This document shows, piece by piece, positions 11,561 through 37,993 of a DNA stretch of 64,000 nt. The translations under genes and the position numbers were made by a program. The notes under the pieces are model-generated. The model did not search any database. It was not told the origin of the DNA and worked only from the letters and a program-made list of their open reading frames with translations. The stretch comes from a virus (Duplodnaviria > Caudoviricetes): the IMG/VR virus record IMGVR_UViG_3300022555_000032, positions 21,428-85,427 of that record. The stretch is one strand, 5' to 3'. Each line of letters opens with the position of its first letter. Position 1 is the first letter of the stretch.

Positions 11561-11702
11561 CGTTTTTCTTTTTAAGTGGACACCATGTTGGTTGACAAGA
11601 CACATTACCTATGACTTTCTTAGTCAATAAGCATTTACAATGATTTCCTCGGGTAGATAGATGTTCGCATATTTCACATCTGATTGGTTCGTCTTCGCTC
11701 AT
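11547..11702 (-). CDS. Cys-rich 51 aa microprotein (not in ORF track)
   Basis: Hand translation MSEDEPIRCEICEHLSTRGNHCKCLLTKKVIGNVSCQPTWCPLKKKNDGKD; fills the intergenic gap. Confidence 0.7.
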   Translation of the reverse strand: MSEDEPIRCEICEHLSTRGNHCKCLLTKKVIGNVSCQPTWCPLKKKNDGKD

Positions 11703-11944
11703 ATCATTATTACCTTTTTATCTTTAAGAAGTTCAACAGATTCAGATAATGCAACTTCGTCAATAGATCCATTAAGATTGATACATTGCCATCTGAGATG
11801 CATAACTATTACTTCTTTCCTTATCATCTTTTTTAAAGGAAAGTCTGATAGTCCACAGCCGGATAAAGGAGAAATGTCAATGTCTGGATAGGAGATGTTC
11901 TTCCTGATCTCATCAACTACTTGTTTAATTTCAGTTTTATTCAT
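11699..11944 (-). CDS. Hypothetical protein
   Basis: ORF in operon. Confidence 0.7.
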   Translation of the reverse strand: MNKTEIKQVVDEIRKNISYPDIDISPLSGCGLSDFPLKKMIRKEVIVMHLRWQCINLNGSIDEVALSESVELLKDKKVIMI

Positions 11945-12209
11945 TGAATCCGTTTATGTTATCGTAAATAAGAGTTCCGTCATCATTATAAACTTCCATG
12001 GTAGATTGACCATCATTTTCTTCAATAGTCATTTGTTCTTCTGTTTCTACCTGAAATTCATAACTAAGATTAATATTTGGTAAATGATCATAAATATCAT
12101 TAGAAGAAGTTATCTTATCTTCTAAAATTAAATCAAGAAGTTTTTCCCCATCAGCTATATCTGATATCTGAACTTTCTCCCAACATGTTACCTTAAAATT
12201 AGCGTACAT
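11937..12209 (-). CDS. Hypothetical protein
   Basis: Acidic ORF in operon. Confidence 0.7.
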   Translation of the reverse strand: MYANFKVTCWEKVQISDIADGEKLLDLILEDKITSSNDIYDHLPNINLSYEFQVETEEQMTIEENDGQSTMEVYNDDGTLIYDNINGFNE

Positions 12210-12361
12210 ATCTCTTGATTAAGTATTTATTAAACTGTTTTAATTGTATACATGCATTACCATGTCTGAAGTAGGTACAATATAGTCTTAACCGAATCAA
12301 CTTACGTTGTTCATCATCTTGCATTTTAGACCATATGTGAGTGTCGATGTGCTTATGTATC

Positions 12362-13261
12362 CTATTCCTCTGTTGGAAGGAGATCGTCTGTCGTAGGTTC
12401 CTTATCTTGCTTATTAAGGTATGTTTCCAAGTCATAGTCATCTGATGTATGGAAGATTTCATCAACAAGGTTTGAAAGATAGTTCTGATTAACCTCAGTA
12501 ATCTTACCTGAAGCTAAATCAGCCTGAATACGATCAATCATTGCATTGAAGTAATGAATATCAACACCTATGAGTTGATCATACATGATTTTAGGATTCT
12601 TAAGATCAAGAGCATTAAGCTGAAAAGCCATCTTAAAGATATCGCCAGCGCTTATTGTCCATCCTCTGGTCAAGAACTTCCTTAATCTAAAGAATGATGC
12701 TAAAGGATATAAGGAACCTACATAGCGTAATTCTTTAGCAAGGATAGCTTCCATTGAATCGGGATTAAGTCTCAGTTTACCATCTTTCGATAACCAGTAG
12801 GACTTAACATGAACAAAGTCATAGTTCTTATGGATTTCTTCTGCAGGTCCATAGAACCGGATGATAAGCTGAACCTGATTAGTTAAAGAGATAGCATTAT
12901 CTGTTATTACAGCTGGATAGAACTTCTTTCCTTTGTAACAAGGTCTCTTTATACCATCTGATTTAATCTGAAAACGGATTCTTCCATCTGGATCCTCGAC
13001 AATCTTTGTATTATTCATCCAGGTCTCATTCTCCTTGAGTAGTAATGAACGATAATAATTACATACCGCTAAGACTGTTTCTTTATTGGTAAAATAGATA
13101 TCAAAGTCATTAACCTCTTCGTTAAGGACTAGTGATACTATTGCCCCACCAGTAATGATAGAATTGTCTTTTACTAATTGCCTTACCTTTTCATCTGTTA
13201 TTGATTTAAGGAATAAGGCAAACTGACCTCTGAGGATCTTTTCACACGTTATAGCTTTCAT
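12362..13261 (-). CDS. Pol-beta superfamily nucleotidyltransferase (phage type)
   Basis: ITGGAIVSL...VNDFDIYF (GG + DxD), YDFVH, LRY..S.YPL.S..RLRKF..RGW. Confidence 0.75.
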   Translation of the reverse strand: MKAITCEKILRGQFALFLKSITDEKVRQLVKDNSIITGGAIVSLVLNEEVNDFDIYFTNKETVLAVCNYYRSLLLKENETWMNNTKIVEDPDGRIRFQIKSDGIKRPCYKGKKFYPAVITDNAISLTNQVQLIIRFYGPAEEIHKNYDFVHVKSYWLSKDGKLRLNPDSMEAILAKELRYVGSLYPLASFFRLRKFLTRGWTISAGDIFKMAFQLNALDLKNPKIMYDQLIGVDIHYFNAMIDRIQADLASGKITEVNQNYLSNLVDEIFHTSDDYDLETYLNKQDKEPTTDDLLPTEE

Positions 13262-14544
13262 ATTGTTTTTGCTAATTGTTTAATTACTTTCTTATTGCTA
13301 TTGACTAGTCTTACAATCTCTTTATGATATGGGGAATCATCATTATTTAATCCTCTTGCCTGAACAACTTTCATTTCCGATAAAGAGAATTCTATTGTTT
13401 CTAATCTCTGGTTATCTTTCCTTGCCGATAGTATTAATGAGTCTTCATCAGCATAGTATTCATTGCTAAATACGCAATGATTAAGGCTATCTCCTTCTAT
13501 TACAAACTCATTAACATCTTTTAGAACTACTACTGAGAAATTATCATTAGAGAACTGAAGAGGGAAGAACTTACTTTTAGATTGTTGATAAAGGATATTG
13601 GCTTCTGCTATCTTAGCTTTTAGTTTAGCAATACCTTCTTTTCTTCTTCTTTCATTACTCTTTCTGATATATCTCTGGTGTTCTAATTTGAGATCAACAG
13701 GACAGATGAACTTAGGGTTGTAGATGTCCTTTTCAAACGATATGAGCATGTCTATCTGATCAAGCCACGTAGCTACATCTTTAACAAGATAGTTGTTCCT
13801 GATGCATATTCTGATTTGAGGCCAGTACTCTTTGATCTTTTGATTATACCTATGATATTCACTAAGAAGATTAAACTGACCAGTCTTGATCAATGTCTCT
13901 GTTTTTGATTCGGATAGGATTATAGAGAATAGATAAGCCGGATGAAGCTGATGAAAACTATACTTAAAACCATTTCGTCTTAAAGTCTTAAGATAGCGTT
14001 TGCCTGGACAAATATCCTTTCCATAGGTATAATATTTGTCTTTAATGTTCCGAATCTCCATGTCAGATCCCCAAATCCATTTGTCTCCATATCCAAAAGC
14101 ATTATCCTTTACGGCTCTTACTACACTTAATCCATCTTCTCTTATCCAGTGCTGAATGACCTCCATGGAACTATATACAGCCTTCTTACCAGCATAACAG
14201 CGCTGATGAATCCAAACAATCCTTACTATCTGATAGTTCTTATGAGTAGACATATAGAAATAATACTCTTTATCGAACTTATGCCTTATACGTCCTTCTA
14301 AGACCTTTAGGTCGCATCCACACTTAGGACAAGTAAATCCACCTACTTTAACTAGAAGTGATCCCTTAACGTCTGAATTAGGCCATTTATGACCACATTC
14401 TAAGCAAATAACTTCATGCTTTGTCTTATAAGCATATTTCTTAAAGAGATTCTTTCTGGCCCAGGGAAGAGATGATTTGATAATTGGAGAAAGAGACTTA
14501 GATAGATGATCGACTTCAATCTGAATCTTTGTCTTTGGTTTCAT
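13258..14544 (-). CDS. pcfJ: PcfJ-like protein
   Basis: Zn ribbon CLECG/CPKCG; C-terminal EG..LNHCV...Y...SLILSAR....ETIE....VVQARG..N PcfJ domain. Confidence 0.85.
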   Translation of the reverse strand: MKPKTKIQIEVDHLSKSLSPIIKSSLPWARKNLFKKYAYKTKHEVICLECGHKWPNSDVKGSLLVKVGGFTCPKCGCDLKVLEGRIRHKFDKEYYFYMSTHKNYQIVRIVWIHQRCYAGKKAVYSSMEVIQHWIREDGLSVVRAVKDNAFGYGDKWIWGSDMEIRNIKDKYYTYGKDICPGKRYLKTLRRNGFKYSFHQLHPAYLFSIILSESKTETLIKTGQFNLLSEYHRYNQKIKEYWPQIRICIRNNYLVKDVATWLDQIDMLISFEKDIYNPKFICPVDLKLEHQRYIRKSNERRRKEGIAKLKAKIAEANILYQQSKSKFFPLQFSNDNFSVVVLKDVNEFVIEGDSLNHCVFSNEYYADEDSLILSARKDNQRLETIEFSLSEMKVVQARGLNNDDSPYHKEIVRLVNSNKKVIKQLAKTI

Positions 14545-14758
14545 TAGAAATTTTCTTTACTTCTTCAATGAAGGCTCTACAATGACGACCATCTTTAGTC
14601 TTTCCGTATAAGAAATAGTTAAACTGTGTTCCTACTTTTCTTACACATGAAGGAAAATCCCGTATGATGAATCTTTCACCTGTCTTTACAAGATTTTCTC
14701 CTTTATAATCTTTAGTTAATTCTAATGTTTCACCTATGCAAAATCCTGGATCTTTCAT
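14516..14758 (-). CDS. Hypothetical protein
   Basis: ORF between pcfK-like and pcfJ. Confidence 0.7.
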   Translation of the reverse strand: MKDPGFCIGETLELTKDYKGENLVKTGERFIIRDFPSCVRKVGTQFNYFLYGKTKDGRHCRAFIEEVKKISNETKDKDSD

Positions 14759-15177
14759 TAGAACAAACTTAATTCTTCTGTTTTAGCAACTTCTTTCTTA
14801 GCTGGAATAATAGTAGGTGCCTGTTTCTTTCGCATAGAGGCCATAGCATCATCCTGGACCTTTTGGATAGCTTCTTTACGTGCTTTGTCTTTCTCTTCTT
14901 GAGTAAGCTCAACGGTATGATTAACCACTACTGTAGCATCAATAGCCTTTCCTATATCGATGATCTCTTCGTCATAGTAGTGTACTGCCATTGAATAGAC
15001 TTCTGCATCTGTAAAGCCATTAATACCGCTTTTCTGAACAGTATTTAAGATATAAGTACAACAGTCTTCAATGTTCTTCTTATCGTTCTTAAACTTGACT
15101 GCAAAGAGTTCATCCTGTTCTGCTTTTACTTCAAGATGTTTCTGTATTGCTGCTTTGAAAAAATCAGATCTTTTCAT
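14758..15177 (-). CDS. acrIIA9: PcfK / AcrIIA9-family protein (candidate Cas9 inhibitor)
   Basis: DELFA...KNIEDCCTYILN.V.KSG..GFTD.EVYSMAVHYYDE..IDIG.....VVVNH.VELT.EEK..AR matches recalled PcfK/AcrIIA9 pattern; next to pcfJ. Confidence 0.75.
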   Translation of the reverse strand: MKRSDFFKAAIQKHLEVKAEQDELFAVKFKNDKKNIEDCCTYILNTVQKSGINGFTDAEVYSMAVHYYDEEIIDIGKAIDATVVVNHTVELTQEEKDKARKEAIQKVQDDAMASMRKKQAPTIIPAKKEVAKTEELSLF

Positions 15178-15448
15178 TTAAATGAGCATTTAAATAATCA
15201 AATGAAAGTTGTTCGAATTTAAGTTTTGTATAAAAATATGCTTTAACACCACCTATTTCAATAGAAAAAGAATCTAATGGAGTTAATTTCTGATCCATAG
15301 AAATTTTCCAAACTGGTATAGGCTTATATACTGTCCTTGATATGAATTCAAGTTCATAAAATCTATCGTATTCACATTCTATTACAATTACAGAATGTTT
15401 ATACTTAGGTTCGTCAAGATATGCTAATATCTTAAATAATTTATCCAT
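15164..15448 (-). CDS. Hypothetical protein
   Basis: ORF in operon. Confidence 0.65.
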   Translation of the reverse strand: MDKLFKILAYLDEPKYKHSVIVIECEYDRFYELEFISRTVYKPIPVWKISMDQKLTPLDSFSIEIGGVKAYFYTKLKFEQLSFDYLNAHLNEKI

Positions 15449-15691
15449 CTAAAATGCTTTATAAGGGTAAGGATTGTTCAAAATGTAAAACTCTAAGGCT
15501 TTTTGTGCTGTTTCGCTAGCTTTAATAAGCTGTATTATTAAGTCATAAGGATCCTGTCCTTGTGCTAAGGCGGTTACAACAGTATGAAATAGAGCCGATG
15601 TCTTATACATTTCTTCTTTTTGATCGACTGGAAACTTATCAATAGTCTCCTGGACTTTTATAAACCATTCTTCTTTATTCATTTTTTCCAT
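15449..15691 (-). CDS. Hypothetical protein
   Basis: ORF in operon. Confidence 0.7.
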   Translation of the reverse strand: MEKMNKEEWFIKVQETIDKFPVDQKEEMYKTSALFHTVVTALAQGQDPYDLIIQLIKASETAQKALEFYILNNPYPYKAF

Positions 15692-15897
15692 TCATTATAT
15701 CCTACTTCAAAAGCAATAGGATCAAGTTTTCGAATAATTGTACCATATTTATTTTGAAGTCCTTTCTTTAAAGCCCAATTCTTTTCTCTTGAAGTTTTAT
15801 CATTACCGGCCCAACAATGTTCTGTAAGATCTCTACATTGATGAAAGTCATATAATTGATTAAGATATTCTTCATAATCATTTTTTGTCTTTTCCAT
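15679..15897 (-). CDS. Hypothetical protein
   Basis: ORF; DPIAFEVGYNEW motif common in small phage proteins. Confidence 0.7.
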   Translation of the reverse strand: MEKTKNDYEEYLNQLYDFHQCRDLTEHCWAGNDKTSREKNWALKKGLQNKYGTIIRKLDPIAFEVGYNEWKK

Positions 15898-16090
15898 GTT
15901 TAACTTCTTTATCGTTTAATAATACCAATCTGTTTAAAGGAACTATTGCTTCAACTTTAGCCTTGGATTGACATAAAGCCTTATCTTTTTCCACCAATCT
16001 CATAATCCTTACTGGTATTCCTCTTGAATTAGTAACCTTATACCACTTTACAATAAGGTTAGGACTATTATTGACCTCTGGGTACCTCAT
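15878..16090 (-). CDS. Hypothetical protein
   Basis: ORF in operon. Confidence 0.6.
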   Translation of the reverse strand: MRYPEVNNSPNLIVKWYKVTNSRGIPVRIMRLVEKDKALCQSKAKVEAIVPLNRLVLLNDKEVKHGKDKK

Positions 16091-19765: not shown

Positions 19766-20182
19766 TCAGGCTATAGCTTGCCGTTGTATGGAGCCGTTAC
19801 GAGCAACCGGGTTAATAGCCGGATATGTTTTATGGTAGAAAGGATTAACAGGGGAATAAGAAGTATGGCCAAACATAAATTCACTCTTATAAGTTATCCC
19901 TTTTGTCCTTTCGCTCCACATAAGAGCTGAAACACAGATATAATCCTTATACGGATCATCTGCAGGCCGGAATCCCGGGTTATTGGTTGATAAAGCACTC
20001 CAGGATTCTCCTGGCAGGTCGGCAGTCATCGTGGATATATTTATTAAACTAACTGATACATACGTACCAGGTGGCTTAACAATCAATCCAGAAGATGCCT
20101 GAGAGGTCATAACGCTCCCAATCAGCAAGATCATAAGAAGTCCAAAAACTCCGTAGATCCATTTCATTGTTTTCATAGGCAC
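19766..20182 (-). CDS. Secreted/membrane-anchored hypothetical protein
   Basis: N-terminal hydrophobic segment ending SQA. Confidence 0.55.
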   Translation of the reverse strand: MPMKTMKWIYGVFGLLMILLIGSVMTSQASSGLIVKPPGTYVSVSLINISTMTADLPGESWSALSTNNPGFRPADDPYKDYICVSALMWSERTKGITYKSEFMFGHTSYSPVNPFYHKTYPAINPVARNGSIQRQAIA

Positions 20183-20364
20183 TCCTATTGGTTAGTTATT
20201 AATCATCATTTCTCATGTAGATAGGTTAAACTACTGATGATTAGAATCCTATTTTAGTCATAAAAGCAATATAGATATTGATATTAAAAAGAAAGTACAG
20301 TGCTATTAACAAGCACGTTCCACTAACACATATTCCTAAATAATGCCATGGATAATCCTTAATA

Positions 20365-20859
20365 TCAGTTAGGATTGTTTTGATCGTTGATCGGGATAAT
20401 AATCGAATGATCGCAGACGTATGGACATGGTCCGGATCCTTGACTTGGTGTTGCATAGTATAATGTATTAATATTGTTTCCATTACGATCTGTTGAACAT
20501 ACTGTAGAAATGTTAAGAGTACCATCTTTGGCTATAGTTATCCTACAGCCTACGGTTGATTCGCTTTGAAAAAGAATAGACATTGCTTCGTATTGCCAAC
20601 GATTAACTAAGAATGATTTAAATACACCATTAATAGGTGTTGGCTTAGAATTGAGATATTGTTCCTGGAATTCTTTCGCAAGACCATACGAGATAAGCTG
20701 CATAAATGGATTGTTTTGAGGCTGTATAACAGCTTCTTTTAGGTTAGCCGAAGGATATACTGGTTTAGCTTCGTCCTTCTTCGTACAACTCATAATAGAG
20801 AATACAAGCATGTACATCAAAACGCAAAACGCAAAGATTCGTACCTGATGTTTTTTCAT
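20365..20859 (-). CDS. Lipoprotein
   Basis: Signal peptide + IMSC lipobox followed by TKKDE; C-terminal GPCPYVC. Confidence 0.75.
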   Translation of the reverse strand: MKKHQVRIFAFCVLMYMLVFSIMSCTKKDEAKPVYPSANLKEAVIQPQNNPFMQLISYGLAKEFQEQYLNSKPTPINGVFKSFLVNRWQYEAMSILFQSESTVGCRITIAKDGTLNISTVCSTDRNGNNINTLYYATPSQGSGPCPYVCDHSIIIPINDQNNPN

Positions 20860-20900
20860 TGTAACTGTTTTAGTTAATGGTTAATGATTTGAAGAAAAGA

Positions 20901-20975
20901 AAAGAAAGGATGGATAGTAATTGAGGAAATATAGCTACACATTTGTCAACTGATGAGGCACCCATACCTTTCTTT
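20901..20975 (-). promoter_or_regulatory. Leader stem-loop/attenuator or small RNA
   Basis: Outer AAAGAAAGG/CCUUUCUUU stem, inner AAAUGUG/UAUAUUU with G-U pairs valid only on minus strand, followed by U-rich tract. Confidence 0.55.
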
Positions 20976-20990
20976 CTATGAATGGAACAA

Positions 20991-20998
20991 CAAATATA
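20991..20998 (-). promoter_or_regulatory. Bacteroidetes sigma70 -7 element
   Basis: TATATTTG on minus strand (TAnnTTTG consensus). Confidence 0.6.
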
Positions 20999-21128
20999 TA
21001 AAATAAATTATGAAAAATCAGATAAGCAAAAGAAATGAATATGCTAAACGGTATTGATTAAATTTTCCCCTCTCTTTTCAACACCTATGCTTACACCAGC
21101 TTCCTTTCATTTCTTCGCTCAAGACTAA

Positions 21129-21243
21129 GACATATGCTAACTGAGGTAACTAGGAGTTATCACTACCCCATGGATCCAGATTTCGATCCCCATTGTTGCC
21201 TGTTTCACTTGACTCACCCCTTCCCGAGAGGATAACATATGCC
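21129..21243 (-). ncRNA. Candidate structured multibranch RNA
   Basis: Closing stem GGCAUAUGUUA/UUAGCAUAUGUC with G-U pairs only on minus strand; internal hairpins. Confidence 0.45.
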
Positions 21244-21390
21244 TTAAATATCATCTTCTCTTGAATCTATTTCTTTCTCTTTGTTCATAGTCAGCACGAA
21301 CTTCTGCCTCCCTACTTTTATCAGTAATGAAGATGATTGTCTTACCACCATTCAACACTATCGGATATTTGTCTTTTACAGATCCACAAA

Positions 21391-21585
21391 TTACTCAATA
21401 GAATCAAACCATCCGGCAATATATATTGTGGAATCTATGTCAAAGATACAATCTGAAAGCAATTCACAACTAATCCCTTGTTGTTGATCAAGAATATCAA
21501 CCTTAGCTCTCCTTTTACGTTCCATTTCTTTAAACTCTTTTCTAGTTGTAATTCTAGAAGGAGTAACCGCATACCTACGTTTCAT
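21391..21585 (-). CDS. Hypothetical protein, possibly continued in -1 frame to 21251
   Basis: 64 aa ORF; adjacent frame open 21394-21251 without ATG. Confidence 0.4.
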   Translation of the reverse strand: MKRRYAVTPSRITTRKEFKEMERKRRAKVDILDQQQGISCELLSDCIFDIDSTIYIAGWFDSIE

Positions 21586-21620
21586 AAAGATTTAATTAGA
21601 TTGTTAAACAAATGTATGAA

Positions 21621-21716
21621 TTATGATAGAATGTTAGCAATTATTACCAGTGCGCCCATTGCTAAGGCACCAAGAATGATCTTGATAAGTATTACTGGAA
21701 CTTCGACTAGTTTCAT
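21621..21716 (-). CDS. 31 aa hydrophobic membrane peptide (not in ORF track)
   Basis: MKLVEVPVILIKIILGALAMGALVIIANILS, 4 nt after lipoprotein stop. Confidence 0.5.
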   Translation of the reverse strand: MKLVEVPVILIKIILGALAMGALVIIANILS

Positions 21717-21720
21717 ATAG

Positions 21721-22107
21721 CTAATTTTTATAGACTATTGTTAGTTTCAATTGAATGATTGTACCTGGAGATGCATTAAGTCTTCCTATCAGACTATTAT
21801 CATCATTCATTAGATACTTAATATCTAAATTTTGATTAAAATATCCTTTAGATAGGACTATTGAATCAAGATCATTTGATGATTTAGTCTTTAAAAGTAG
21901 TAGAACCGGACTCTTATCTGTATATACTGTACCATTCATACCTAAAACACTAATAGGATTACTCATTAATGTTTTAAAGGTAGGAATATTAAAATCACCA
22001 ACAGGTATTGAGATCTGAATGGTTTGAAAGGGAAGGATATCTGATTGTTCCTGTTTAGAACAAGAGATCAATGCCAAAATGATAATAAGAAACAAAGTTG
22101 TTTTCAT
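21721..22107 (-). CDS. Lipoprotein
   Basis: MKTTLFLIIILALISC lipobox then SKQEQ. Confidence 0.75.
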   Translation of the reverse strand: MKTTLFLIIILALISCSKQEQSDILPFQTIQISIPVGDFNIPTFKTLMSNPISVLGMNGTVYTDKSPVLLLLKTKSSNDLDSIVLSKGYFNQNLDIKYLMNDDNSLIGRLNASPGTIIQLKLTIVYKN

Positions 22108-27567: not shown

Positions 27568-28158
27568 ATGAAAAAGTATCTTTTTATCTTAATCGGTTTA
27601 TTCATCACCCTTGCTTCCTTTAGCCAGGGATCAGGTTCGCTTGGAGATCCACATCGAAGAACATCAAGGGTTAGTACAGATCCAATAGAAGGAACTACAC
27701 TTACACTAACCGGAACTGCAGTAATAGGATCTACAATAACATTTCCTACACCTTTTATCCTTGGCGCTACAGCAGTAACAACTACCGGAACTAAATTCAA
27801 CTATCTTACATCGGCAACTGGAACTACCGGAACTGCAACAACTAATATCGTATTCTCAACAAGTCCAACCATTACAACTCCTACATTTATAACTAATCTA
27901 ACCTTACCTAATACTAAGACCATTACTAAAACAACTGGCAATGGAAATAGCTCTACAATAGATGGATCTTTAGCAGTAGGAGATACTATAACTGGCAATT
28001 CTATAAAAACAAATGCCAAACTAAGATTTGCAGCTATTACAGATACGACCATTAAAAGTATTGGACTATCGGTTATAGGTACAGTATTATATTTCTGTAA
28101 TGGAACCTATTATTATCCTGTAGTATTTTCAAAAAATGGTGCAACATTTACACGATAA
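27568..28158 (+). CDS. Thr-rich fibre-like protein with Sec signal peptide
   Basis: MKKYLFILIGLFITLASFS|Q; TGTTGTATTNIVFSTSPTITTPT. Confidence 0.7.
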   Translation: MKKYLFILIGLFITLASFSQGSGSLGDPHRRTSRVSTDPIEGTTLTLTGTAVIGSTITFPTPFILGATAVTTTGTKFNYLTSATGTTGTATTNIVFSTSPTITTPTFITNLTLPNTKTITKTTGNGNSSTIDGSLAVGDTITGNSIKTNAKLRFAAITDTTIKSIGLSVIGTVLYFCNGTYYYPVVFSKNGATFTR

Positions 28159-28161
28159 ACT

Positions 28162-28656
28162 ATGAAAAAGATACTTTTAATTTTCGTCTTGACAACGATC
28201 TCCCTTCTGACTTTTGCTCAGAGGGGAGTATTCGTTACTAATCTCCCAGAGATAGGATCATCTACTGTTAACTACGATAGTCTTCGTAATGCTATCAATA
28301 GAACAAATACATTAGTAACTATTCTTAGTATCAAGATGGATAGTCTTAAGGCTGCACAGAATAGAACTACTGCCTGGTCTACACTACTTGAAAAGAAAGT
28401 TGATACCACCTATAGGCTTCAATTTGGACTTAATGGAGGTGTCTTTGTAAATGATGCTAATGTTCATAATGGACAGTTTAATGGAATACAAGTTATCGCA
28501 GATGCTATATTAGCAACTGTAACTGCTGATCTTGCAAGTCCATTAACTGGAACTATAACTGGCATAACTCTTCCTGCAGGTATGTGGATACCTATTCAAT
28601 GCACGACAGTAACATTAACAAGTGGCAAGGTATATCTCCCATTAAGAATTAAGTAA
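28162..28656 (+). CDS. Coiled-coil + beta-domain protein with Sec signal peptide
   Basis: MKKILLIFVLTTISLLTFA|Q; heptad region; GITLPAGMWIP...VTL.SG C-domain. Confidence 0.7.
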   Translation: MKKILLIFVLTTISLLTFAQRGVFVTNLPEIGSSTVNYDSLRNAINRTNTLVTILSIKMDSLKAAQNRTTAWSTLLEKKVDTTYRLQFGLNGGVFVNDANVHNGQFNGIQVIADAILATVTADLASPLTGTITGITLPAGMWIPIQCTTVTLTSGKVYLPLRIK

Positions 28657-31253
28657 TGAAAAGGATCATTCTTTTACTGCTCATAATTTCTCCTATTTGG
28701 TCCTTTGCTCAGTTAGGATTGGGGATAGGGATAGGTCGGGGATCATCTTCAACACCTATTTCTAATCCTATCCAATACTTTGACGGAACAATCGCTAAAT
28801 CCGGCAACCTTTACTATTTAAAGGATAAAATAGGTACAAGAGATGCACTATTAATGGATGCTCCTTGTCTTAATATTCCGGCTTCATCAACCTATTATGC
28901 GGATTTAGGTAATACTGTCTATCCTACCAATACAAATGATTTCTTGATTGTGGCAAATGATTCAGTAACATTTGAATACGAGTTCATTTTACCTATCACT
29001 AATCCCAATGTTTATCAGGCTATGTATAATAATGGAGGTACGGCTAATGGAGACAAGGGCATAAGGATAAGGATGGGGGATGATAGACATATAACAATAG
29101 GAATAAGTGATGGCGTTGTAAAACAAGAAATAAGGTGCGCAACTGTCAATACTGCCGGATATAATAAGGTTTCCATAACATTAGGACTTGTTGGTAAGAC
29201 CTGTACATTTGTTGTTAATGGAACAACAACAAAACAGAATATAACGTCAAATGCTAATATTCCCGCAAATACAGCAATAAAATTATTTTACTATGGTTCA
29301 GGATCAACATATTCATTGATAAGTAGTTTCATACGATTCAAATTTTATAGAAATAATGTTGCTCTACATGAGTGGTATTTTAATGACGGAATGAAAACTA
29401 TTTTGGAGTACAACGAGCATTATGTTATTCCTGATTTAATTGGAACATTTAATTTATATTTACGTAAGCCAACTACTTCAACTTTCGGAGGATCACCCTT
29501 TACAGCAGTTCAAAACTCTGACTTTTATTTACAAGAACAAGGATATACAGTATATTCAAGGGTTCAGAATCCTGATGAAATATACATCTGCCCAAAAAGA
29601 AGGGATGCAACTGTTACTACACAGATTGGCGTTGGATATTCACGTTTTGTTTCTACGCAATCAATATCATCAACTGAATTTGGTTATCATGCTTGGAAAA
29701 CAATAGACTTTAATCCAGCAGATAGTGTAAGTTCATTTTATGATTATTGGGATACTTCTAACTCATTATTTTGGACTGCTGCTGCCCGTAGTGATGGTAA
29801 TTATCATGGAGGTACGGCAGGTAATAAATGGCAAGTTGATAGATCGTGGCTCAATAAAACAACTTTAGATGCCTATACTGTTAAGGGGAATATTCATGCA
29901 AAAAGATCATTCCTTAATTTTAACGATGTTTCTTTGACTTATTGTACCAAGTTAACAAGCATCAGAACTTATTCATCTAATTATACAAGACCTGTTGTAG
30001 ATGAATATTTAACAACAAGAAAGAATAATCTATATTTTACCCGACCCCTTATGGCAGGGGGAACTCCGGGATATTTGGTTGCGGTAAAAGATAATAAATA
30101 TCTATGCCTTGCTGGAAATAATCTATATTATTCTTCTGATTATGGGGTGACATACGGATCTCCGGTTAATATTTCAACAACTACTGGGATAACACTTTTA
30201 CAAAAGGATAGGTATTTTATAACCCCCACTGGAACTATTCTGTTTGTTCCAGATGGTAATAAAAAGGTATTTCGCTCAACTGATAATAATATAAATTGGA
30301 CTGAATCCACTTATCAATTATATTATAGAGGAACAGATACCATTTTTAAACATCGGACTAATCCAGCATATCCGGGAACATTTTTCAGACCAATGGACGG
30401 ATTTTATATTAATCCGGCAAGTGGTTCTAATCCTCAAATTATACTGATTGGTAATTATGGTTGTTCTGTCACTGGGGCTGCTCCAGCAATAGTATGGTAC
30501 TCAATAGATGATGGTGCATCTTGGAAGGTTGCTTATGCCTTTGGTCAAGCACTTCAATATAGAGATGATGGTACAGCAGAAGGAGGTGTTACAGGAACAT
30601 TATTAGGAGATGCAACCAATCCAATAACAGTAAGACACATTTATGCAATCAATATGAATCCTTATGATGGCACATTTTGGGTGTTCACAGGAGACGGGGG
30701 CTACAAAAATCAATGGATGCGAGGTACTTATAATTATGTTGCAGACACATGGAGTTGGGAGAAAATGAAAGATTCATCTAATGATGCTAATGAAGATTTC
30801 AGAATCATTCGTGCCACTTTTAAAGATGCAAACACGATGATTATTCCCGAAGATGCGGGAATATTTACATCTGGTTATGTGATGTATCAGGTTCCTATTT
30901 CAACATTAAATCAAACTAATACATGGACGGGGTTAGCTACTCCTTATCATAATAAATCTATCTATTGGCTTAGATGTTGGGATAATGGCAAAGTGTTGAT
31001 AGTATTCGATTATGATGCTTCATATACTGCTAAAATATATTATTCATTAGATTGGGGAACAACATGGAGCAGTACAGATAATCCAGTATATGAAAATTAC
31101 AGAGGACTTACAAGTGCGGGTTATATTCCAACAAAATTAAGATTTGACTTTGTATTTGATTACCCTGATAGCAAGGGCAAGATGCTTAGTCCATTTCCAG
31201 ATTATACAGGAAACGGATTGTTTTATTTACATTCTGGAGATATAACTCCTTAG
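28656..31253 (+). CDS. Receptor-binding/depolymerase-like protein (LamG-like + BNR/Asp-box propeller) with signal peptide
   Basis: MKRIILLLLIISPIWSFA|Q; Asp-boxes YSSDYGVTY, RSTDNNINW, YSIDDGASW, YSLDWGTTW. Confidence 0.65.
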   Translation: MKRIILLLLIISPIWSFAQLGLGIGIGRGSSSTPISNPIQYFDGTIAKSGNLYYLKDKIGTRDALLMDAPCLNIPASSTYYADLGNTVYPTNTNDFLIVANDSVTFEYEFILPITNPNVYQAMYNNGGTANGDKGIRIRMGDDRHITIGISDGVVKQEIRCATVNTAGYNKVSITLGLVGKTCTFVVNGTTTKQNITSNANIPANTAIKLFYYGSGSTYSLISSFIRFKFYRNNVALHEWYFNDGMKTILEYNEHYVIPDLIGTFNLYLRKPTTSTFGGSPFTAVQNSDFYLQEQGYTVYSRVQNPDEIYICPKRRDATVTTQIGVGYSRFVSTQSISSTEFGYHAWKTIDFNPADSVSSFYDYWDTSNSLFWTAAARSDGNYHGGTAGNKWQVDRSWLNKTTLDAYTVKGNIHAKRSFLNFNDVSLTYCTKLTSIRTYSSNYTRPVVDEYLTTRKNNLYFTRPLMAGGTPGYLVAVKDNKYLCLAGNNLYYSSDYGVTYGSPVNISTTTGITLLQKDRYFITPTGTILFVPDGNKKVFRSTDNNINWTESTYQLYYRGTDTIFKHRTNPAYPGTFFRPMDGFYINPASGSNPQIILIGNYGCSVTGAAPAIVWYSIDDGASWKVAYAFGQALQYRDDGTAEGGVTGTLLGDATNPITVRHIYAINMNPYDGTFWVFTGDGGYKNQWMRGTYNYVADTWSWEKMKDSSNDANEDFRIIRATFKDANTMIIPEDAGIFTSGYVMYQVPISTLNQTNTWTGLATPYHNKSIYWLRCWDNGKVLIVFDYDASYTAKIYYSLDWGTTWSSTDNPVYENYRGLTSAGYIPTKLRFDFVFDYPDSKGKMLSPFPDYTGNGLFYLHSGDITP

Positions 31254-31284: not shown

Positions 31285-31842
31285 ATGTTAAATCTTCAAA
31301 TAGAAAGATACCGTAATGACCTTCAATCTTCGATAGGCCGTTTAATAATTGACGGTAATCTATTTATTTCAACTCTTGAACCACCAGTTGGTAAAGTCAA
31401 TGATCGTGGCATTCAATCAATATCAGAAGGGACCTATAAACTGGTTCCTTATTTTTCTTATAAGTTTCAATGTATTGTTCCTTTGCTTACAACCGATCTT
31501 CATAACCTGGATACTCTTAAGGATGATGAAGACATTTCTAAGCATTGTTATGAGATCCATTGGGGCAACTCACATCACGATACCGACAGGTGCATACTAT
31601 TAGGCAAGCTCGATCATGTTGACTGGATCGTAGATAGTAAATATTGGTTTAAGCAATTCATGTACGGATACTTCTTAAAAGCTACTACCAGGAAATCAGT
31701 AGAGTTACTTAATAAATACTTCGAGAGTTTACAGGGAAAAGAATCAAGTGAGATGTCTAATCTACAGTGGGAAACTGTTTCTAATGAAGATTATGCTAGA
31801 GAGGACCAAGATGTTATTCTTACTATCATAAATTCATTTTAA
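31285..31842 (+). CDS. DUF5675-family endolysin (putative L-Ala-D-Glu peptidase)
   Basis: SIGRL.IDG....TLEP...I.EGTY...YFS.KF...P.L...EIHWGN...DT..CILLG; precedes holin. Confidence 0.8.
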   Translation: MLNLQIERYRNDLQSSIGRLIIDGNLFISTLEPPVGKVNDRGIQSISEGTYKLVPYFSYKFQCIVPLLTTDLHNLDTLKDDEDISKHCYEIHWGNSHHDTDRCILLGKLDHVDWIVDSKYWFKQFMYGYFLKATTRKSVELLNKYFESLQGKESSEMSNLQWETVSNEDYAREDQDVILTIINSF

Positions 31843-31853
31843 CACTTCGCATT

Positions 31854-32123
31854 ATGAAAAAGGCATTAATATGGTTATCTACTATTGTTTGCGACCAAGC
31901 TGGACAGATATCCAGTAAGCGATTAGGATTCTACTGGTGTCTATGGATGCTGTCAAGGGCCGTATCATCACCTACGATCAACGAAATTGTTATCTGGGCC
32001 ATAGTTGGTCTTGCGTTTGGTTTAGCCGGTCTAACGATCCCTGAATGGTTTTCTCAGAAGGGTATCAATGGAACCACTACTACAATGAAGGCAAGTTCTA
32101 CCGAGACTACTACAATTAAGTAA
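31854..32123 (+). CDS. Putative holin
   Basis: SSKRL motif, two hydrophobic segments, lysis cassette. Confidence 0.65.
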   Translation: MKKALIWLSTIVCDQAGQISSKRLGFYWCLWMLSRAVSSPTINEIVIWAIVGLAFGLAGLTIPEWFSQKGINGTTTTMKASSTETTTIK

Positions 32124-32145
32124 CAATCCTATAAATCCTGCAACT

Positions 32146-32601
32146 ATGACAAAGACTAAGGAAGATTCAATCGTTAGGGCTATACGATATCTACATTCTA
32201 CTAAATTTAAGACAGCATTCTTTTGGATTATTGTTTCTACTATTTTTTCGTTACTTGGAACATTAACAGTATTATCCATTAAGAATAATGCAAACGGAGA
32301 GGCAAGAGAACGAGTACTTGATATTACCTTATCAAAGATTAACGAAATAGATAAGAAGTTAGATAATAAGGCAGATGCTTCAACTAATTCAGAAGATCAT
32401 AAAGAGATACTTAATGTTTTAAAAGACTTCCAATGTTCTCTTAATGATGTTAAGTTAGGGGTTAATAAACTTAATTGGATACATCATCTTGAGTCAATTT
32501 CAAGATATGAGAATAGAGTTTATTGCCAACCTCCATTTCAAATATCAACACCATATAGTTTTAATAATAAAAACGAACAATATTTAGAACAAGGACCATG
32601 A
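32146..32601 (+). CDS. Membrane protein with coiled coil (lysis-associated)
   Basis: One TM helix then coiled coil. Confidence 0.6.
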   Translation: MTKTKEDSIVRAIRYLHSTKFKTAFFWIIVSTIFSLLGTLTVLSIKNNANGEARERVLDITLSKINEIDKKLDNKADASTNSEDHKEILNVLKDFQCSLNDVKLGVNKLNWIHHLESISRYENRVYCQPPFQISTPYSFNNKNEQYLEQGP

Positions 32602-33131
32602 AAAGAAGCGTTATAGGATCGATTATGTTTGTACTGGCACTATGTGTCATTTTTAGTTGTAGGCCCTCTCAGAAACTTTGTAATAAGTGTTATCCTCCAA
32701 AAGAAAGCATAAGAGACTCCATCGATCATTCAGTAGAATGGATAAAGCATGATTCATCAACAACCATTCCAGGAGACTCAGCCTGGTATAAACTTTGGAT
32801 CGATTGTCAGAAAGACAAAGATGGTAATTGGAAACCAGTCATTATCAATCAACAAGGACAACAAGGAAAGAACATTGAGATACAAACTGAATACGAGAAC
32901 AGTATCTTCTATGTTACTGCCAAGATCGATTCGCTAAAAGTATTCTGGTCTTATTGGGATAAATATGTTAAAGACTCTCATTTTAAGTATGTAGTCAAAA
33001 GTGAACAAGTAGTATACATTCCATGGTATATCAAAGCACTTGCCTTCATAGGAGGGATCGTATTAGGCATTGCCGTTATCTATTATGCATGGAAGTGTAT
33101 AAAGTTCTATCTTCTTAAAAAACCATTTTAA
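32598..33131 (+). CDS. Putative unimolecular spanin
   Basis: N-terminal lipobox IFSC and C-terminal TM helix IPWYIKALAFIGGIVLGIAVIYYAW. Confidence 0.65.
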   Translation: MKRSVIGSIMFVLALCVIFSCRPSQKLCNKCYPPKESIRDSIDHSVEWIKHDSSTTIPGDSAWYKLWIDCQKDKDGNWKPVIINQQGQQGKNIEIQTEYENSIFYVTAKIDSLKVFWSYWDKYVKDSHFKYVVKSEQVVYIPWYIKALAFIGGIVLGIAVIYYAWKCIKFYLLKKPF

Positions 33132-33793: not shown

Positions 33794-34814
33794 TGGCGCT
33801 ACTCTTTTACCAAGTTCTACAACACCTAAGATGGTTGGTAATCCTATCTATGATAAGTTCGTAGTTAAGAATACTGAGCCAATGGGAACAAGGTTAGAAC
33901 CTAGTGAAGAAAGAGATTATAGGAAGTGGATGGAGAAGATTGGTCATACCTATGAAAACGGAATGAATGTTTCTCCTGTAGGTTACAATGGACTTGACTA
34001 TGATTATCGTGGATATTATAAAGAACATGGTCCGGTTGACATGCAGAAAGGCGAACACTTTACTGATACATACAAATATCCAAATCATCCCACCTTCAGT
34101 ATTGAAAGTAAGTATGTAAATTTTCAAAATATTTCTCAGGCCGGCAGATGGGAAGGAGAACAGTATATTCATGCCAATGGTTATAACAAGCCAGAGGAAG
34201 AACAACCAATCAGTTTAAAGGATACCAGAATTATCAATCCAGTATCAGGACAACCGCTTAAAAGTACTCACAATAGATCATTAGACGTAAATCCAACTAT
34301 GCTTAAGACTCTTGTTAATGTCTCTAAAATAGGTGGAGTTGATCCCTGGCGGTCTTTAGCAACAGCATGGCAAGAGACTAATTTTGGAAAAGCTGATGGA
34401 AACGTAGGACATGTCAATATAGATCCTGGTAAGTTTTCTGATCAATTATCAGTAGATCCTTCAAAACACGAAGATGGTTCTCAGTATAACAGTATCATTT
34501 CTCTTGTAGATGCTATTAAACAAAAGAATGCGTATGCTAAACAGATTGCATTAAAGAAAAAGTTAGTTCCCGGGTCTCCTGGTTATTCTGATTTCGAAAC
34601 GCAGATCTATAATGGAATGTCCAATATAGGAGTCAATACCGAAAAGACTTACCACAATAGAACAGGCAGATCAACAAATTCATTCTATGGAGTAGAAGTA
34701 AAGAACAAACCGATGAATACCGCTACTCTTCTTCCATATGCCAAGACCATAAATTCACTTATAGGTGAATTAAAAAAGAATCCAGATATTGTTAAGATAG
34801 TTGAAGGAAAATGA
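33783..34814 (+). CDS. Virion-associated protein with putative lysozyme-like domain
   Basis: HFTDTYKYPNHPTFS..SKY N-domain; ATAWQETNFG C-domain. Confidence 0.5.
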   Translation: MANNGATLLPSSTTPKMVGNPIYDKFVVKNTEPMGTRLEPSEERDYRKWMEKIGHTYENGMNVSPVGYNGLDYDYRGYYKEHGPVDMQKGEHFTDTYKYPNHPTFSIESKYVNFQNISQAGRWEGEQYIHANGYNKPEEEQPISLKDTRIINPVSGQPLKSTHNRSLDVNPTMLKTLVNVSKIGGVDPWRSLATAWQETNFGKADGNVGHVNIDPGKFSDQLSVDPSKHEDGSQYNSIISLVDAIKQKNAYAKQIALKKKLVPGSPGYSDFETQIYNGMSNIGVNTEKTYHNRTGRSTNSFYGVEVKNKPMNTATLLPYAKTINSLIGELKKNPDIVKIVEGK

Positions 34815-37800
34815 TCTTTAAAGATACCTTTAGATTCTCGCCAGTAATCTATGAACATGATCTTCCACACAAGGAGGATTATTTTCATATTACACCGGAT
34901 GGTATCAATAAGGAGATAATTTCTAATAGTGTTGTTGATTCTATATGGTGGAACAAACAGAAAGATCGTTGTCTTAACGGTTACTATGTCGATGATGCTA
35001 TTGATAAAGGTGGAGATGCCCTTGTCGATGGAATAGATGCGATATGGACGGGGAACGATTGTTACCTGCCAGAATACGATGTCCGGATCATCAACAGGCG
35101 TGTATGGATCTCTGGAAGGCTTTATTTCTATCTTAACTTTTGGCCCATTTACGGTCTTAAGCTTGGTGCCAGGTTCAAGGACTTGATCAATCCTAAATTC
35201 CTAATGCTTGACTTTCTCTTTGCCTCAAGAGTAGAACAGTGTTTCGCTCAGATGAAGGATATGGAAGAGGCTAAGGCAAGACAGTTAGGTTTCTCTGAGA
35301 AGATAGCTGGTATGATGGTAGGCTATAACTATACCTTTATACCAGCGTCAGTTAATATCATTATCGGTGGTACTGAAGCTGATAGTGAACATATGTTTGA
35401 GAATACTGTTCGTGGTCTTGACTACTTAAGGAATACTCAATTCTACAAAATCAGGTCTATCAATAAGATGTCCGACCTTTTCATTAAGGCTAAGAACTTC
35501 AAGAGTGAAGTAAGGGCATTAACGGCAAAGGATAAACCCCAAGCAATTTCGCGTTATTGTTTTGGTAAGAATACTAAGGTTAGAATGTTTAATGGATCTA
35601 TTAAAAATATTCAAGACATTTTAATAGGCGATAAGTTAATGGGTATTGATTCAAAAGAACGAATTGTTAAAGATGTACATGCTGGAATAGACCAGATGTA
35701 TAAAATTTCATCAATTAAGACAGATTCTTTTATTTGTAATGCAAATCATTTATTGTATTGTTACCATAAACCAATGTTAAGAAAGAAACTAGGAAATGGT
35801 AAATATGTTCAGAATAATTTTAATTATCCAAATGTTACTAAAGTTGATGATAATCATTTTTTGATTCGTGCAGAAGATTATTATAACTCAAGTTTAACAT
35901 TTAAACGTTATTCATCAATTGAAAAATCTATTGGTATTGAATATAAAAAAAAGAAACAATTAATTGATCCATATTTTTTAGGATTATGGTTAGGTGATGG
36001 TGAAGTTGGAACATTAAGATTTACTGTTAATATTGAAGAAAAAGAAATTTTAGAATATCTAACATATTTTGCTTTTTATCATTGTTGTGAAGTTAAAATA
36101 GAACCTCCTACATTTTGTAAATTTCTTAATAGAGATTCAAAAGCATGCCGAGTAAGAATATCTTATAGAGATAGAATAGGTAAATCATATAAACCTATGA
36201 AAAACTATCTTATAGAAGAAATGAAGAAATTAAAAATACTAAGAGATAAATTCATTCCTAAAAAATATTTATTTTCTTCAAGAGATGATAGACTATTATT
36301 ACTTGCCGGATTAATAGATACAGACGGATGGAGAGTGAAAACAAAAGAAGGATTTGAACATTATGCAATTTCCCAGGTTAATAAAAAGCTTATTTACCAA
36401 ATTAAAGAACTTTGTGAAAGTCTTGGGTTTTATACCAATATAAGCGAGCCAAAATATAATGGAAACATTAATGGATATAAATCACAACCAATTTTTGAAT
36501 TATACATTAGTGGTGAAAATATTCATCATATTCCGGTTAGATTAGAAAAAAAGAAAATCAAACAACATAATTATATTAAAAATCCTCTTCATTCAGTATT
36601 TACAATAGAAAAACTTAATCAAGATAAATATTATGGAATTGAAATAGATGGTGATCAATTGTTTTTATTACAAGATTATACAATCGTTCATAACTCGCCT
36701 ACCTTAGTTGTTTATGAAGAAATTGGTAAATGGAAGAAAGGACTTATCCGTAAGACAAAGAAGTTTGTAGATATCTCCTTATGGACAGAGACAACTAAGA
36801 CAGGACTATCGGTTGATATTGGTACTGGTGGAGACATGAAGGCCGGAGCTGCAGACATGGAAAGAATGGTCTATAATCCAAAGGCTAATAACTTCGTTGA
36901 GTATAATAATCGCTGGACTAAAGAAGGAGATAACCTTGCATTATCCAAAGTAGGTCACTTCTCTCCTAAGTGGATGTATAAGATCGTTGATAAAGATGGT
37001 AATCCTCAGAAGGAAGAAAGCCTTATCAAGATCGAAGCAGAGATCCTTAATGTTCCTCCAGATGAAAGGATAACTGAAAGAGCAAACCAAGCATGCTATC
37101 TTAACGAGATGTTCCTTATCCCTGGCGGTGGATTCTTCGGTGAAGAGATCGTAGGAAACCTTAATGCTCAGAAGAGCGATATAAATACGCACAAGGACCT
37201 TAAGACCTTTGTTAAGAACTACAGATTAGAATGGATTGATAAGAGGGATATCACAAAGGGAGTTAAAGCTATCCAGGATGATGAAAAAGGATGGTGTAAG
37301 ATCCACGAACTTCCTACAACGCATAAGAAGACCGGAGAAGTAATTCAGAACCTCTACGGGGCTGCTACGGACTCCTACGACTACGATGAAGCGCTTACAT
37401 CATCATCTAAGGGATCCTGTTGGATTTATAAAAGGCTTTATAGTGCTGATCAGATCTATAGGACTTGGGTAGCTGGTTATGTTGAAAGACCTGAGACTGC
37501 AGAGGGTGGAGCTGATCTATTCTATGAGAGATGTGCTATGTTATGCGTGTTCTATCGTGCCATCAACCTTATAGAGTGGAGTAAGATAAGAATCTTTGAC
37601 TGGTTCAAAAGGAATAACCTTACCTCATACCTTAAGGAAAGACCTCAGTTTGTATTAGCCAGACTAATTAAAGATACTAAACAGGTTAATGAATATGGTA
37701 TTGATCCAGCAACTAAACCTGAATGGCTTAAATCATTAAGAGATCATCTAGCAGAACCGGAGAACATTAAGAAAGTCTATTTTGTGGACCTATTGGAAGC

Positions 37801-37993
37801 CTGGGCGAACTTTAAGTATGATCCTTCAGGTAAGAAGTACAACTGCGATATAACGATCTCTACATCGCTTAATTTGATCTTAGAAGAAGATGAAAGACTA
37901 TTGGAGATAGGAAGAGAAGAACCTGAGAATAAAAGAAGGTCTTTTCCTGTATATTCAACTGATGAAGATGGAAACTTTGCAATGTCATTCTAA
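34811..37993 (+). CDS. terL: Terminase large subunit, intein-containing
   Basis: KARQLGFSE Walker-A region, VVYEE Walker B, C-terminal RNase H-like DSYD...D motifs. Confidence 0.9.
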   Translation: MIFKDTFRFSPVIYEHDLPHKEDYFHITPDGINKEIISNSVVDSIWWNKQKDRCLNGYYVDDAIDKGGDALVDGIDAIWTGNDCYLPEYDVRIINRRVWISGRLYFYLNFWPIYGLKLGARFKDLINPKFLMLDFLFASRVEQCFAQMKDMEEAKARQLGFSEKIAGMMVGYNYTFIPASVNIIIGGTEADSEHMFENTVRGLDYLRNTQFYKIRSINKMSDLFIKAKNFKSEVRALTAKDKPQAISRYCFGKNTKVRMFNGSIKNIQDILIGDKLMGIDSKERIVKDVHAGIDQMYKISSIKTDSFICNANHLLYCYHKPMLRKKLGNGKYVQNNFNYPNVTKVDDNHFLIRAEDYYNSSLTFKRYSSIEKSIGIEYKKKKQLIDPYFLGLWLGDGEVGTLRFTVNIEEKEILEYLTYFAFYHCCEVKIEPPTFCKFLNRDSKACRVRISYRDRIGKSYKPMKNYLIEEMKKLKILRDKFIPKKYLFSSRDDRLLLLAGLIDTDGWRVKTKEGFEHYAISQVNKKLIYQIKELCESLGFYTNISEPKYNGNINGYKSQPIFELYISGENIHHIPVRLEKKKIKQHNYIKNPLHSVFTIEKLNQDKYYGIEIDGDQLFLLQDYTIVHNSPTLVVYEEIGKWKKGLIRKTKKFVDISLWTETTKTGLSVDIGTGGDMKAGAADMERMVYNPKANNFVEYNNRWTKEGDNLALSKVGHFSPKWMYKIVDKDGNPQKEESLIKIEAEILNVPPDERITERANQACYLNEMFLIPGGGFFGEEIVGNLNAQKSDINTHKDLKTFVKNYRLEWIDKRDITKGVKAIQDDEKGWCKIHELPTTHKKTGEVIQNLYGAATDSYDYDEALTSSSKGSCWIYKRLYSADQIYRTWVAGYVERPETAEGGADLFYERCAMLCVFYRAINLIEWSKIRIFDWFKRNNLTSYLKERPQFVLARLIKDTKQVNEYGIDPATKPEWLKSLRDHLAEPENIKKVYFVDLLEAWANFKYDPSGKKYNCDITISTSLNLILEEDERLLEIGREEPENKRRSFPVYSTDEDGNFAMSF
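35558..36694 (+). mobile_element. Intein with LAGLIDADG endonuclease (379 aa)
   Basis: Starts CFGKNTKVRMFNG, ends TIVHN before S+1; FLGLWLGDG and LAGLIDTDG; AT-richer than exteins. Confidence 0.95.

Follow-up and report, generated by a model that had tools for sequence, protein, structure and literature searches.

Adjacent fibre-type genes with Q-rule signal peptides next to the lysis genes of a distant crAss-like phage, and a possible periplasmic route of fibre maturation

The stretch of viral DNA analyzed here (64,000 nucleotides, hereafter the window) covers bases 21428-85427 of the 85,427-base virus record IMGVR_UViG_3300022555_000032, which has direct terminal repeats (DTR). Judged by its genes, the genome is that of an uncultured, distant crAss-like phage in a Crassvirales context. 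The Pfam families Crass_capsid (88 bits), CrAss_Ring_1 (31.4 bits) and crAss_MUZ (51.5 bits) each exceeded the cut-off, the portal protein was 22-25% identical to crassvirus portals, and PHROGs recognised the terminase, portal and capsid of the phage. The subject of this study is a run of three genes, P1, P2 and P3 (Table 1). Their coordinates, given in the original prediction, were confirmed. They are tightly packed open reading frames (ORFs) on the + strand that follow a gene for a protein of 329 amino acids (aa), and the ATG of P3 overlaps the stop codon of P2 (ATGA).

Under the Q-rule, Bacteroidetes substrates of the Sec pathway and signal peptidase I expose Gln at position +1, and this residue is cyclised (Bochtler et al. 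2018, PMC5837995; PMC10653852). Q-rule substrates are cellular proteins, whereas in the window the same leader design is found on late phage proteins of fibre or receptor-binding protein (RBP) type. As the original prediction had it, three adjacent genes carry such leaders. The predicted cleavage sites lie between SFS and Gln in P1 (after residue 19), between TFA and Gln in P2 (after residue 19) and between SFA and Gln in P3 (after residue 18). Each leader has two basic residues at positions 2-3, a hydrophobic core of 12-13 residues, small residues at -3/-1 and Gln at +1.

Leaders were searched for in all 85,427 bases of the genome with a strict rule, which called for a basic residue and the absence of acidic ones, an apolar window of 11 residues and a site of the form small-x-small-Gln. 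Nine of the 218 six-frame ORFs of at least 50 aa were leader-like, and the Q-rule site occurred in only three of the nine, namely P1, P2 and P3. Since the Q-rule sites are limited to three adjacent genes among 218 ORFs, chance was excluded. The other leader-like ORFs comprise three lipoprotein genes, a gene for an early-strand secreted protein and a gene for a 693-aa tail-fibre-type protein (Table 1), together with one small ORF beyond the window. The 90%-identity clusters hold almost no variants.

Translation from internal starts would bypass the leaders. It was set aside for P1 and P2, for which no alternative start codon exists: P1 has no second Met and no ATG, GTG or TTG near the leader, and the next Met of P2 is residue 59. 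If they are made, P1 and P2 therefore carry the leader. P3 has one possible TTG at codon 22, but its context is poor: the ATG is preceded by an A-rich stretch and the TTG is not. No Cys was found at or near the cleavage sites of P1-P3, i.e. there is no lipobox. The C-terminal domain of the type IX secretion system (T9SS), already reported as not evident, was not found in P1-P3 by Por_Secre_tail/TIGR04183 matches in Pfam and NCBIfam; the same Pfam library detected Por_Secre_tail in the relative P0036.

It is very unlikely that the hydrophobic N-termini stay uncleaved, leaving the proteins cytoplasmic or tethered to the inner membrane, with the helix serving in docking or membrane association and a leaderless form of P3 made from the TTG at codon 22. 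In favor of such a reading, the fibre protein gp22 of the phage crAss001 docks in the tail hub by its first 26 residues (PMC10172136), the codon-22 TTG would give P3 a start like that of its leaderless homologues, and the leader of the 693-aa protein has no good -3/-1/+1 site. The cores of 12-13 residues are, however, too short for a stable membrane anchor, and in each of the three genes the -3/-1 residues and the Gln at +1 suit signal peptidase I. No other start is available to P1 and P2, the TTG of P3 lacks an A-rich upstream region, and leaders of this type are also carried by relatives from cells and from other phages. Export of P1-P3 via Sec, with cleavage of the leaders, appears highly probable.

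The mature parts had been described as fibre-like, and the family searches and models agree with this description. P1 shares a conserved Thr/Ser-rich tail-fibre repeat with 11 metagenomic relatives. Most of these are leaderless; two (P0008 and P0009) have Q-rule leaders, and the tail module of a 66.7-kb viral contig (L040) includes a gene that resembles P1 and P0009 and also encodes a Q-rule leader. Three copies of P1 residues 21-196 were modelled as an intertwined homotrimer with an ipSAE interface score of 0.78, compared with 0.00 for the best of three controls. The interface comprises residues 34-158, the contacts agreed between runs by at least 80%, and the predicted local distance difference test score (pLDDT) was at least 68. 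In the calibration the mark was reached by 20 of 30 solved homo-pairs and by 1 of 23 single chains; two copies were used there, so the counts hold roughly. The model suggests that P1 may form a trimeric fibre shaft.

P2 contains a virus-only domain. Residues 93-157 match phrog_34166 (function not known; E 2.3e-6), and the C-terminal domain of the Atlas model of P2 matches virus-only clusters of 82-99 aa, also of function not known (template modelling (TM) score 0.71-0.88 by target). BLASTP showed no significant similarity of P2 to the head fibre of DAC15 or to the small genes preceding the P3 homologues in contigs L004, L005 and L006. A model of P2 folded alone had a pLDDT of 35 and was discarded.

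The AlphaFold model of P3 (pLDDT 82; predicted TM score (pTM) 0.74) has a LamG lectin domain and, beyond a middle domain, a 7-bladed propeller that contains Asp-box motifs. The LamG domain superposes on a carbohydrate-binding protein of Bacteroides ovatus (4dqa; Z 16.4, root-mean-square deviation 2.6, 180 aligned residues). Structural matches to the propeller (VIA-align) were generic 7-bladed propellers with Z of about 17. The top Foldseek matches of P3 were the streptococcal sialidases NanB/NanC (E 1e-11, TM about 0.15-0.2), which have only the lectin-plus-propeller architecture in common with it. GH33 sialidases have a six-bladed catalytic propeller with an Arg triad and a Tyr/Glu nucleophile pair. 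An enzyme role of the P3 propeller (sialidase or GH74) was set aside, as the matches are generic. In Pfam, P3 gave a sub-threshold Sortilin-Vps10/Asp-box match alone, and in BFVD it matched entries labelled ConA-like lectin/glucanase superfamily, BNR repeat domain protein and tail fiber protein.

An exhaustive HMMER search gave 206 representatives of the P3 family. A Sec leader was found in 25 of 151 representatives, nearly all with Gln at +1. In 16 of the 151, which are leaderless, an alternating Gly-Ile/Val motif directly follows the initiator Met. Apart from these classes and the Tat-bearing planctomycete propellers described below, the N-termini were varied. P3 alone among the 151 has both the leader and the Gly-Ile motif. 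The leader of P3 is a clean N-terminal addition to a protein otherwise starting with the Gly-Ile motif, because P0018, a homologue without a leader and with 36% full-length identity, starts at the position of the P3 cleavage site and the motif is kept after that site. Another family member, P0017 (750 aa), is a truncated gene call; its frame on contig L034 (10001-12478) extends 75 codons further upstream and begins with a Q-rule leader. Gene-calling can therefore conceal leaders, and the leaderless counts in the P3 family are upper bounds.

Loci of the P3 family were scanned with the narrower alignments A2 and A3. It had been asked whether homologues in other phages lack the signal peptide, and this held in part. 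In the viral contigs L004 and L006 a leaderless P3-family member is the last tail gene before holin and endolysin, but in the viral contig L005 the member in the same slot has a leader or lipobox. In the viral contig L002 a P3-family member is followed by two more leader-bearing genes that adjoin portal and head genes.

The block of P1-P3 indeed lies just before the lysis cassette, as had been read from the sequence. The next gene codes for a DUF5675 protein, a likely endolysin, which is homologous to crAss001 gp30 (annotated as L,D-carboxypeptidase/transpeptidase; BLASTP E 3e-8). It is followed by three envelope proteins, i.e. membrane proteins and a lipoprotein, then by two genes without an assigned role, an intein-bearing terminase and the portal. 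In crAss001 (NC_049977; PMC10172136) the tail-fibre cluster gp22-26 is directly upstream of the lysis genes gp27-30, and P1-P3 likewise precede the gp30 homologue. The two phages are also alike in the crAss-type virion module (capsid, ring, muzzle). They differ in that the fibre-lysis block of crAss001 lies between the portal and capsid genes, whereas that of the window precedes the terminase. The fibres of crAss001 and those of the window showed no sequence similarity in tblastn.

The 693-aa protein is encoded in the tail module. It gave PHROG matches to 'tail spike' and 'virion structural protein' (E 1e-27 to 1e-45), and tblastn matched it to proteins annotated as tail fibres in Pelagibacter, Roseobacter and other phages. 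No leaderless fibre candidate emerged when the structural block of the window was scanned for protein families. The other large proteins of this block are the terminase, portal, capsid, ring and muzzle, together with three post-muzzle proteins at the position of the crAss001 cargo genes.

A closer parallel in the leaders comes from Cellulophaga phages. The proteins gp085, gp086 and gp087 of phi18:3 (NC_021794) have Q-rule leaders like those of P1-P3, and GenBank describes them as virion, structural or tail proteins 'based on experimental MS/MS proteomics analysis' (MS/MS, tandem mass spectrometry). In phi10:1 (NC_021802), gp091-gp094 carry both Q-rule leaders and the MS/MS virion note, and gp095 is also leader-bearing. 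The proteins are of 317-785 aa and are encoded late, in a run of neighbours ahead of the endolysin. The order in phi18:3, with the leader-bearing gp085-087 followed by endolysin (gp092), terminase (gp098) and portal (gp099), is that of the window. The published records of the two phages make no comment on the leaders. While phi18:3 belongs to Pachyviridae and phi10:1 to Assiduviridae, the phage of the window belongs to Crassvirales. When all window proteins were compared with phi18:3, phi10:1 and crAss001 by tblastn, only the terminase and portal of crAss001 matched. Since P1-P3 showed no similarity, the link to the Cellulophaga phages is one of analogy and gene order, not of homology. The records do indicate that purified particles of Bacteroidota phages contain leader-bearing proteins from the fibre region.

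P3 also has cellular relatives. LamG-propeller proteins of Bacteroidota (the 825-aa ORF of L034, P0002 and P0016) have export signals and are 36-44% identical to P3 over LamG, middle domain and propeller. The cellular relatives are chromosomal (by RNase Y or typA), contain extra BACON, Fn3, cadherin-like or dockerin-like modules, and do not have the Gly-Ile motif found behind the leader in P3. In Bacteroidales genomes, secreted proteins of 1,800-2,000 aa with a P3-type propeller at the end adjoin typA. The P3 module is thus common to exoproteins of cells and to phage tail ends. The P3 propeller also has homologues that stand alone (about 400-440 aa). In Pirellulaceae, other Planctomycetota and Chitinophagaceae they have twin-arginine (Tat) signals (loci L014, L018, L019, L021, L023, L028, L031 and L032), and the stand-alone versions of Poribacteria and Armatimonadota have no Tat signal.

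The contig L034 deserves a separate description. Its region 10001-16079 encodes three neighbouring Q-rule proteins, namely the 825-aa P3 homologue, a 345-aa ORF and a 776-aa beta-helix-type protein. The Q-rule leader of the 345-aa ORF is at an internal Met, and its repeat is common in Bacteroidota 'tail-fibre-like' cell proteins. The 825-aa and 776-aa proteins have similar short segments after the leader. This similarity suggests that modules have been swapped behind a common N-terminal adaptor. In the metagenomic protein P0016, BACON and 'viral BACON' domains flank the P3-like core on either side.

In view of the similar three-gene Q-rule cluster on this bacterial contig, with its 40%-identical P3 homologue, we asked how probable it is that the block consists of recently captured host exoprotein genes (morons), of benefit to the host or of no current use, and unrelated to virion or lysis. 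The lack of relatives in GenBank phages and in IMG/VR single-protein scans would agree with a recent capture. However, the genome is DTR-ended and of a lytic, crAss-like type, the genes are tightly packed and translationally coupled in a late rightward operon, and the composition of the block matches the rest of the genome. Moreover, the relatives of P1 are fibre-repeat proteins, several of them with leaderless N-termini. A recent capture of this kind is therefore highly improbable.

Another possible interpretation is that P1-P3 are exported but never join the particle, and are periplasmic or envelope accessory proteins built from fibre- or RBP-type modules. They might bind or trim nascent capsule or lipopolysaccharide glycans, mask the receptor, or aid envelope breakdown at lysis; masking would spare superinfecting phages or released progeny from loss on infected cells and debris. 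Receptor-masking lipoproteins such as Llp of T5 are an established precedent. The leaders are genuine and the genes adjoin the lysis cassette, which would suit such roles as well. The nearest relatives of P3 include cellular secreted proteins, and its propeller family is widespread as a Sec- or Tat-exported cellular protein. Prophages of Porphyromonas gingivalis encode Q-rule proteins of function not known, which have been read as an adaptation to the secretion system of the host and are regarded as possible modifiers of its envelope (Matrishin et al. 2023, PMC10367356). These proteins, which may act on the outer membrane of the host, are not described as fibre-type or as lying in a fibre-lysis block.

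A role outside the virion would, on the other hand, leave the phage without a recognisable RBP. The retention of the motif of the leaderless homologues in P3, the trimeric shaft modelled for P1 and the annotation of leader-bearing Cellulophaga counterparts as virion proteins also disagree with it. In addition, a fourth leader-bearing fibre gene, that of the 693-aa protein, sits in the conserved tail module between ring-1 and muzzle, and P1-P3 have neither a lipobox nor a T9SS domain by which to reach the cell surface, where most receptors are exposed. A role confined to the periplasm or envelope would seem to be unlikely, although it deserves serious consideration.

The frequency of glycosylation sites was also analyzed. 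The general O-glycosylation sequon of Bacteroidetes is D-(S/T)-(A/I/L/V/M/T). The leader-bearing set contained 21 sequons against about 7 expected: 10 against 1.6 in the 693-aa protein, 3 against 0.34 in the 177-aa lipoprotein of the lysis block, 3 against 0.63 in P2, 2 against 0.8 in P1 and 3 against 3.6 in P3. In 22 leaderless proteins pooled, 19 were observed against about 29 expected. The counts would fit exported, glycosylatable proteins, the signal being weak for P1 and absent for P3.

The explanation that we favor is that P1-P3 and the 693-aa protein are peripheral fibre or receptor-binding proteins that are exported, mature in the periplasm and join the virion at lysis. The leaders, the fibre- or RBP-type folds and the gene position can be read directly in the sequence. 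The docking of P1-P3 to virions is moderately likely, and the whole route stands about an even chance of being correct. It is indirectly supported because P1-P3 lie directly upstream of the endolysin as does the crAss001 fibre cluster, because Cellulophaga virion proteins annotated by MS/MS carry the same leaders, because P3 keeps the N-terminal motif of its leaderless homologues right after the cleavage site, and because family scans left the structural block without a leaderless fibre.

Several facts weigh against this route. The fibres gp22-26 of crAss001 have no leaders, unlike P1-P3, and the trait is therefore not general to Crassvirales. The MS/MS detection in Cellulophaga phages is a matter of GenBank notes, which do not prove stoichiometric attachment or removal of the leader. 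P1 and P3 gave no match to a structural protein in PHROG or Pfam. The closest full-length relatives of P3 (40-44% identity) include cellular secreted proteins: L034, an 82-kb bacterial (Bacteroidota) metagenome contig, encodes the 825-aa Q-rule homologue, 40% identical to P3, with RNase Y and a T9SS protein as neighbours, and P0016 (1,430 aa, 43% identity) combines a Q-rule leader with a dockerin-like repeat at its C-terminus. The Tat-bearing propeller homologues of planctomycetes look like ordinary periplasmic proteins. Since its nearest relatives include such secreted proteins, P3 could be a captured host exoprotein with a non-virion job. Finally, the excess of sequons is due mainly to the 693-aa protein and the lipoprotein, and P3 shows none.

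If the favored route is correct, the precursors of P1, P2, P3 and the 693-aa protein would cross the inner membrane via Sec late in infection. Signal peptidase I of the host would cleave P1, P2 and P3 after SFS, TFA and SFA, respectively, and the glutaminyl cyclase of the host would cyclise the new N-terminal Gln. Folding and oligomerisation would then take place in the periplasm, P1 becoming a trimeric shaft and P3 a glycan binder of lectin-plus-propeller type; this compartment would offer disulfide formation and possibly general O-glycosylation by the host. Mature fibres would meet fibre-less cytoplasmic particles and dock on them once the inner membrane is opened by the products of the adjacent lysis genes. 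P3 might dock through the Gly-Ile motif at its new N-terminus, by analogy with crAss001 gp22.

Table 1. Coordinates and main characteristics of P1-P3 and of other features of the window (positions are those of the window).
Feature	Position	Strand	Length (aa)	Remarks
P1	27568-28158	+	196	Leader residues 1-19 (27568-27624), Gln20 = +1; Thr-rich shaft, conserved tail-fibre repeat, small C-terminal tip
P2	28162-28656	+	164	Leader residues 1-19 (28162-28218), Gln20 = +1
P2, mature part				Helical, coiled-coil-like segment, then small beta domain (about residues 80-164)
P3	28656-31253	+	865	Leader residues 1-18 (28656-28709), Gln19 = +1
P3, Gly-Ile/Leu motif	28713-28742	+		Residues 20-29
P3, domains				LamG/ConA-like lectin (about residues 40-290), middle domain, 7-bladed BNR-type propeller (about residues 454-863; 30015-31244)
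DUF5675 protein, likely endolysin	31285-31842	+		Pfam PF18925 (E 2.3e-17); phrog_1501; opens the lysis block after P3
Three small envelope proteins	31854-33131	+		Functions assigned from sequence features alone
Envelope protein	within 31854-33131	+	89	Two hydrophobic segments; holin candidate
Envelope protein	within 31854-33131	+	151	Single N-terminal membrane segment
Lipoprotein	32598-33131	+	177	Leader-like; lipobox Cys, C-terminal membrane segment; unimolecular spanin-like layout
Fibre-type protein	50144-52225	+	693	Between crAss ring-1 (49161-50132) and muzzle (52201-56388); leader-like N-terminus without Gln at +1
Early-strand secreted protein	19766-20182	-	138	Leader-like
Lipoprotein	20365-20859	-	164	Leader-like; lipobox
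Lipoprotein	21721-22107	-	128	Leader-like; lipobox
Terminase, large subunit	34811-37993	+	1,060	Contains an insert

Some other features of the genome are worth describing. The gene of the 177-aa lipoprotein overlaps the stop codon of the preceding gene, which encodes the 151-aa membrane protein. The insert in the large terminase subunit is an intein, because it starts with a Cys, contains a LAGLIDADG-type homing-endonuclease motif and ends in a His-Asn-Ser junction; the PHROG terminase matches (residues about 247-643 and about 630-1041) flank it. The three small early-strand genes at 19766-22107 are candidates for envelope modification or superinfection exclusion, and the 164-aa lipoprotein among them matched the N1 domain of CTXphi pIII weakly, below the threshold. 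Searches of GenBank phages with the region, P1, P3, the DUF5675 protein and P0016 gave no DNA or protein match. Scans of IMG/VR, from which records close to the window may have been missing, with P1, P2, P3 and the portal as single proteins gave no relatives, and PDB sequence searches with P3 and the DUF5675 protein gave nothing useful.

The Q-rule itself and the Q-rule proteins of P. gingivalis prophages are already known (PMC10367356). Literature searches for exported tail fibres found no description of them, and only passing counts of signal peptides in Bacteroides phage genomes. The specific addition of this study is a leader that sits precisely in front of the motif with which members of a leaderless fibre family begin. 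The assembly of tailed phages is taught as purely cytoplasmic. It is conceivable, with a likelihood slightly short of even, that in a wide set of Bacteroidota phages, and perhaps in phages of other phyla, the host-recognition parts mature in the periplasm and join the particles when the holin opens the membrane; the window would then be a crAss-like case of this, with the putative docking motif of P3 placed right at the N-terminus that cleavage creates. If periplasmic maturation of fibres is real, the final step of assembly would be tied to lysis, and receptor-binding proteins could bear pyroglutamate, O-glycans and disulfides, which would affect their stability in gut or water. Such fibres would have to be engineered and produced recombinantly via the periplasm. 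Gene callers and annotators that drop 'secreted' proteins as non-structural would then mislabel host-range determinants of abundant phages, including crAss-like phages. If P1-P3 instead act outside the virion, they would represent a class of RBP-derived periplasmic effectors that is likewise little explored.

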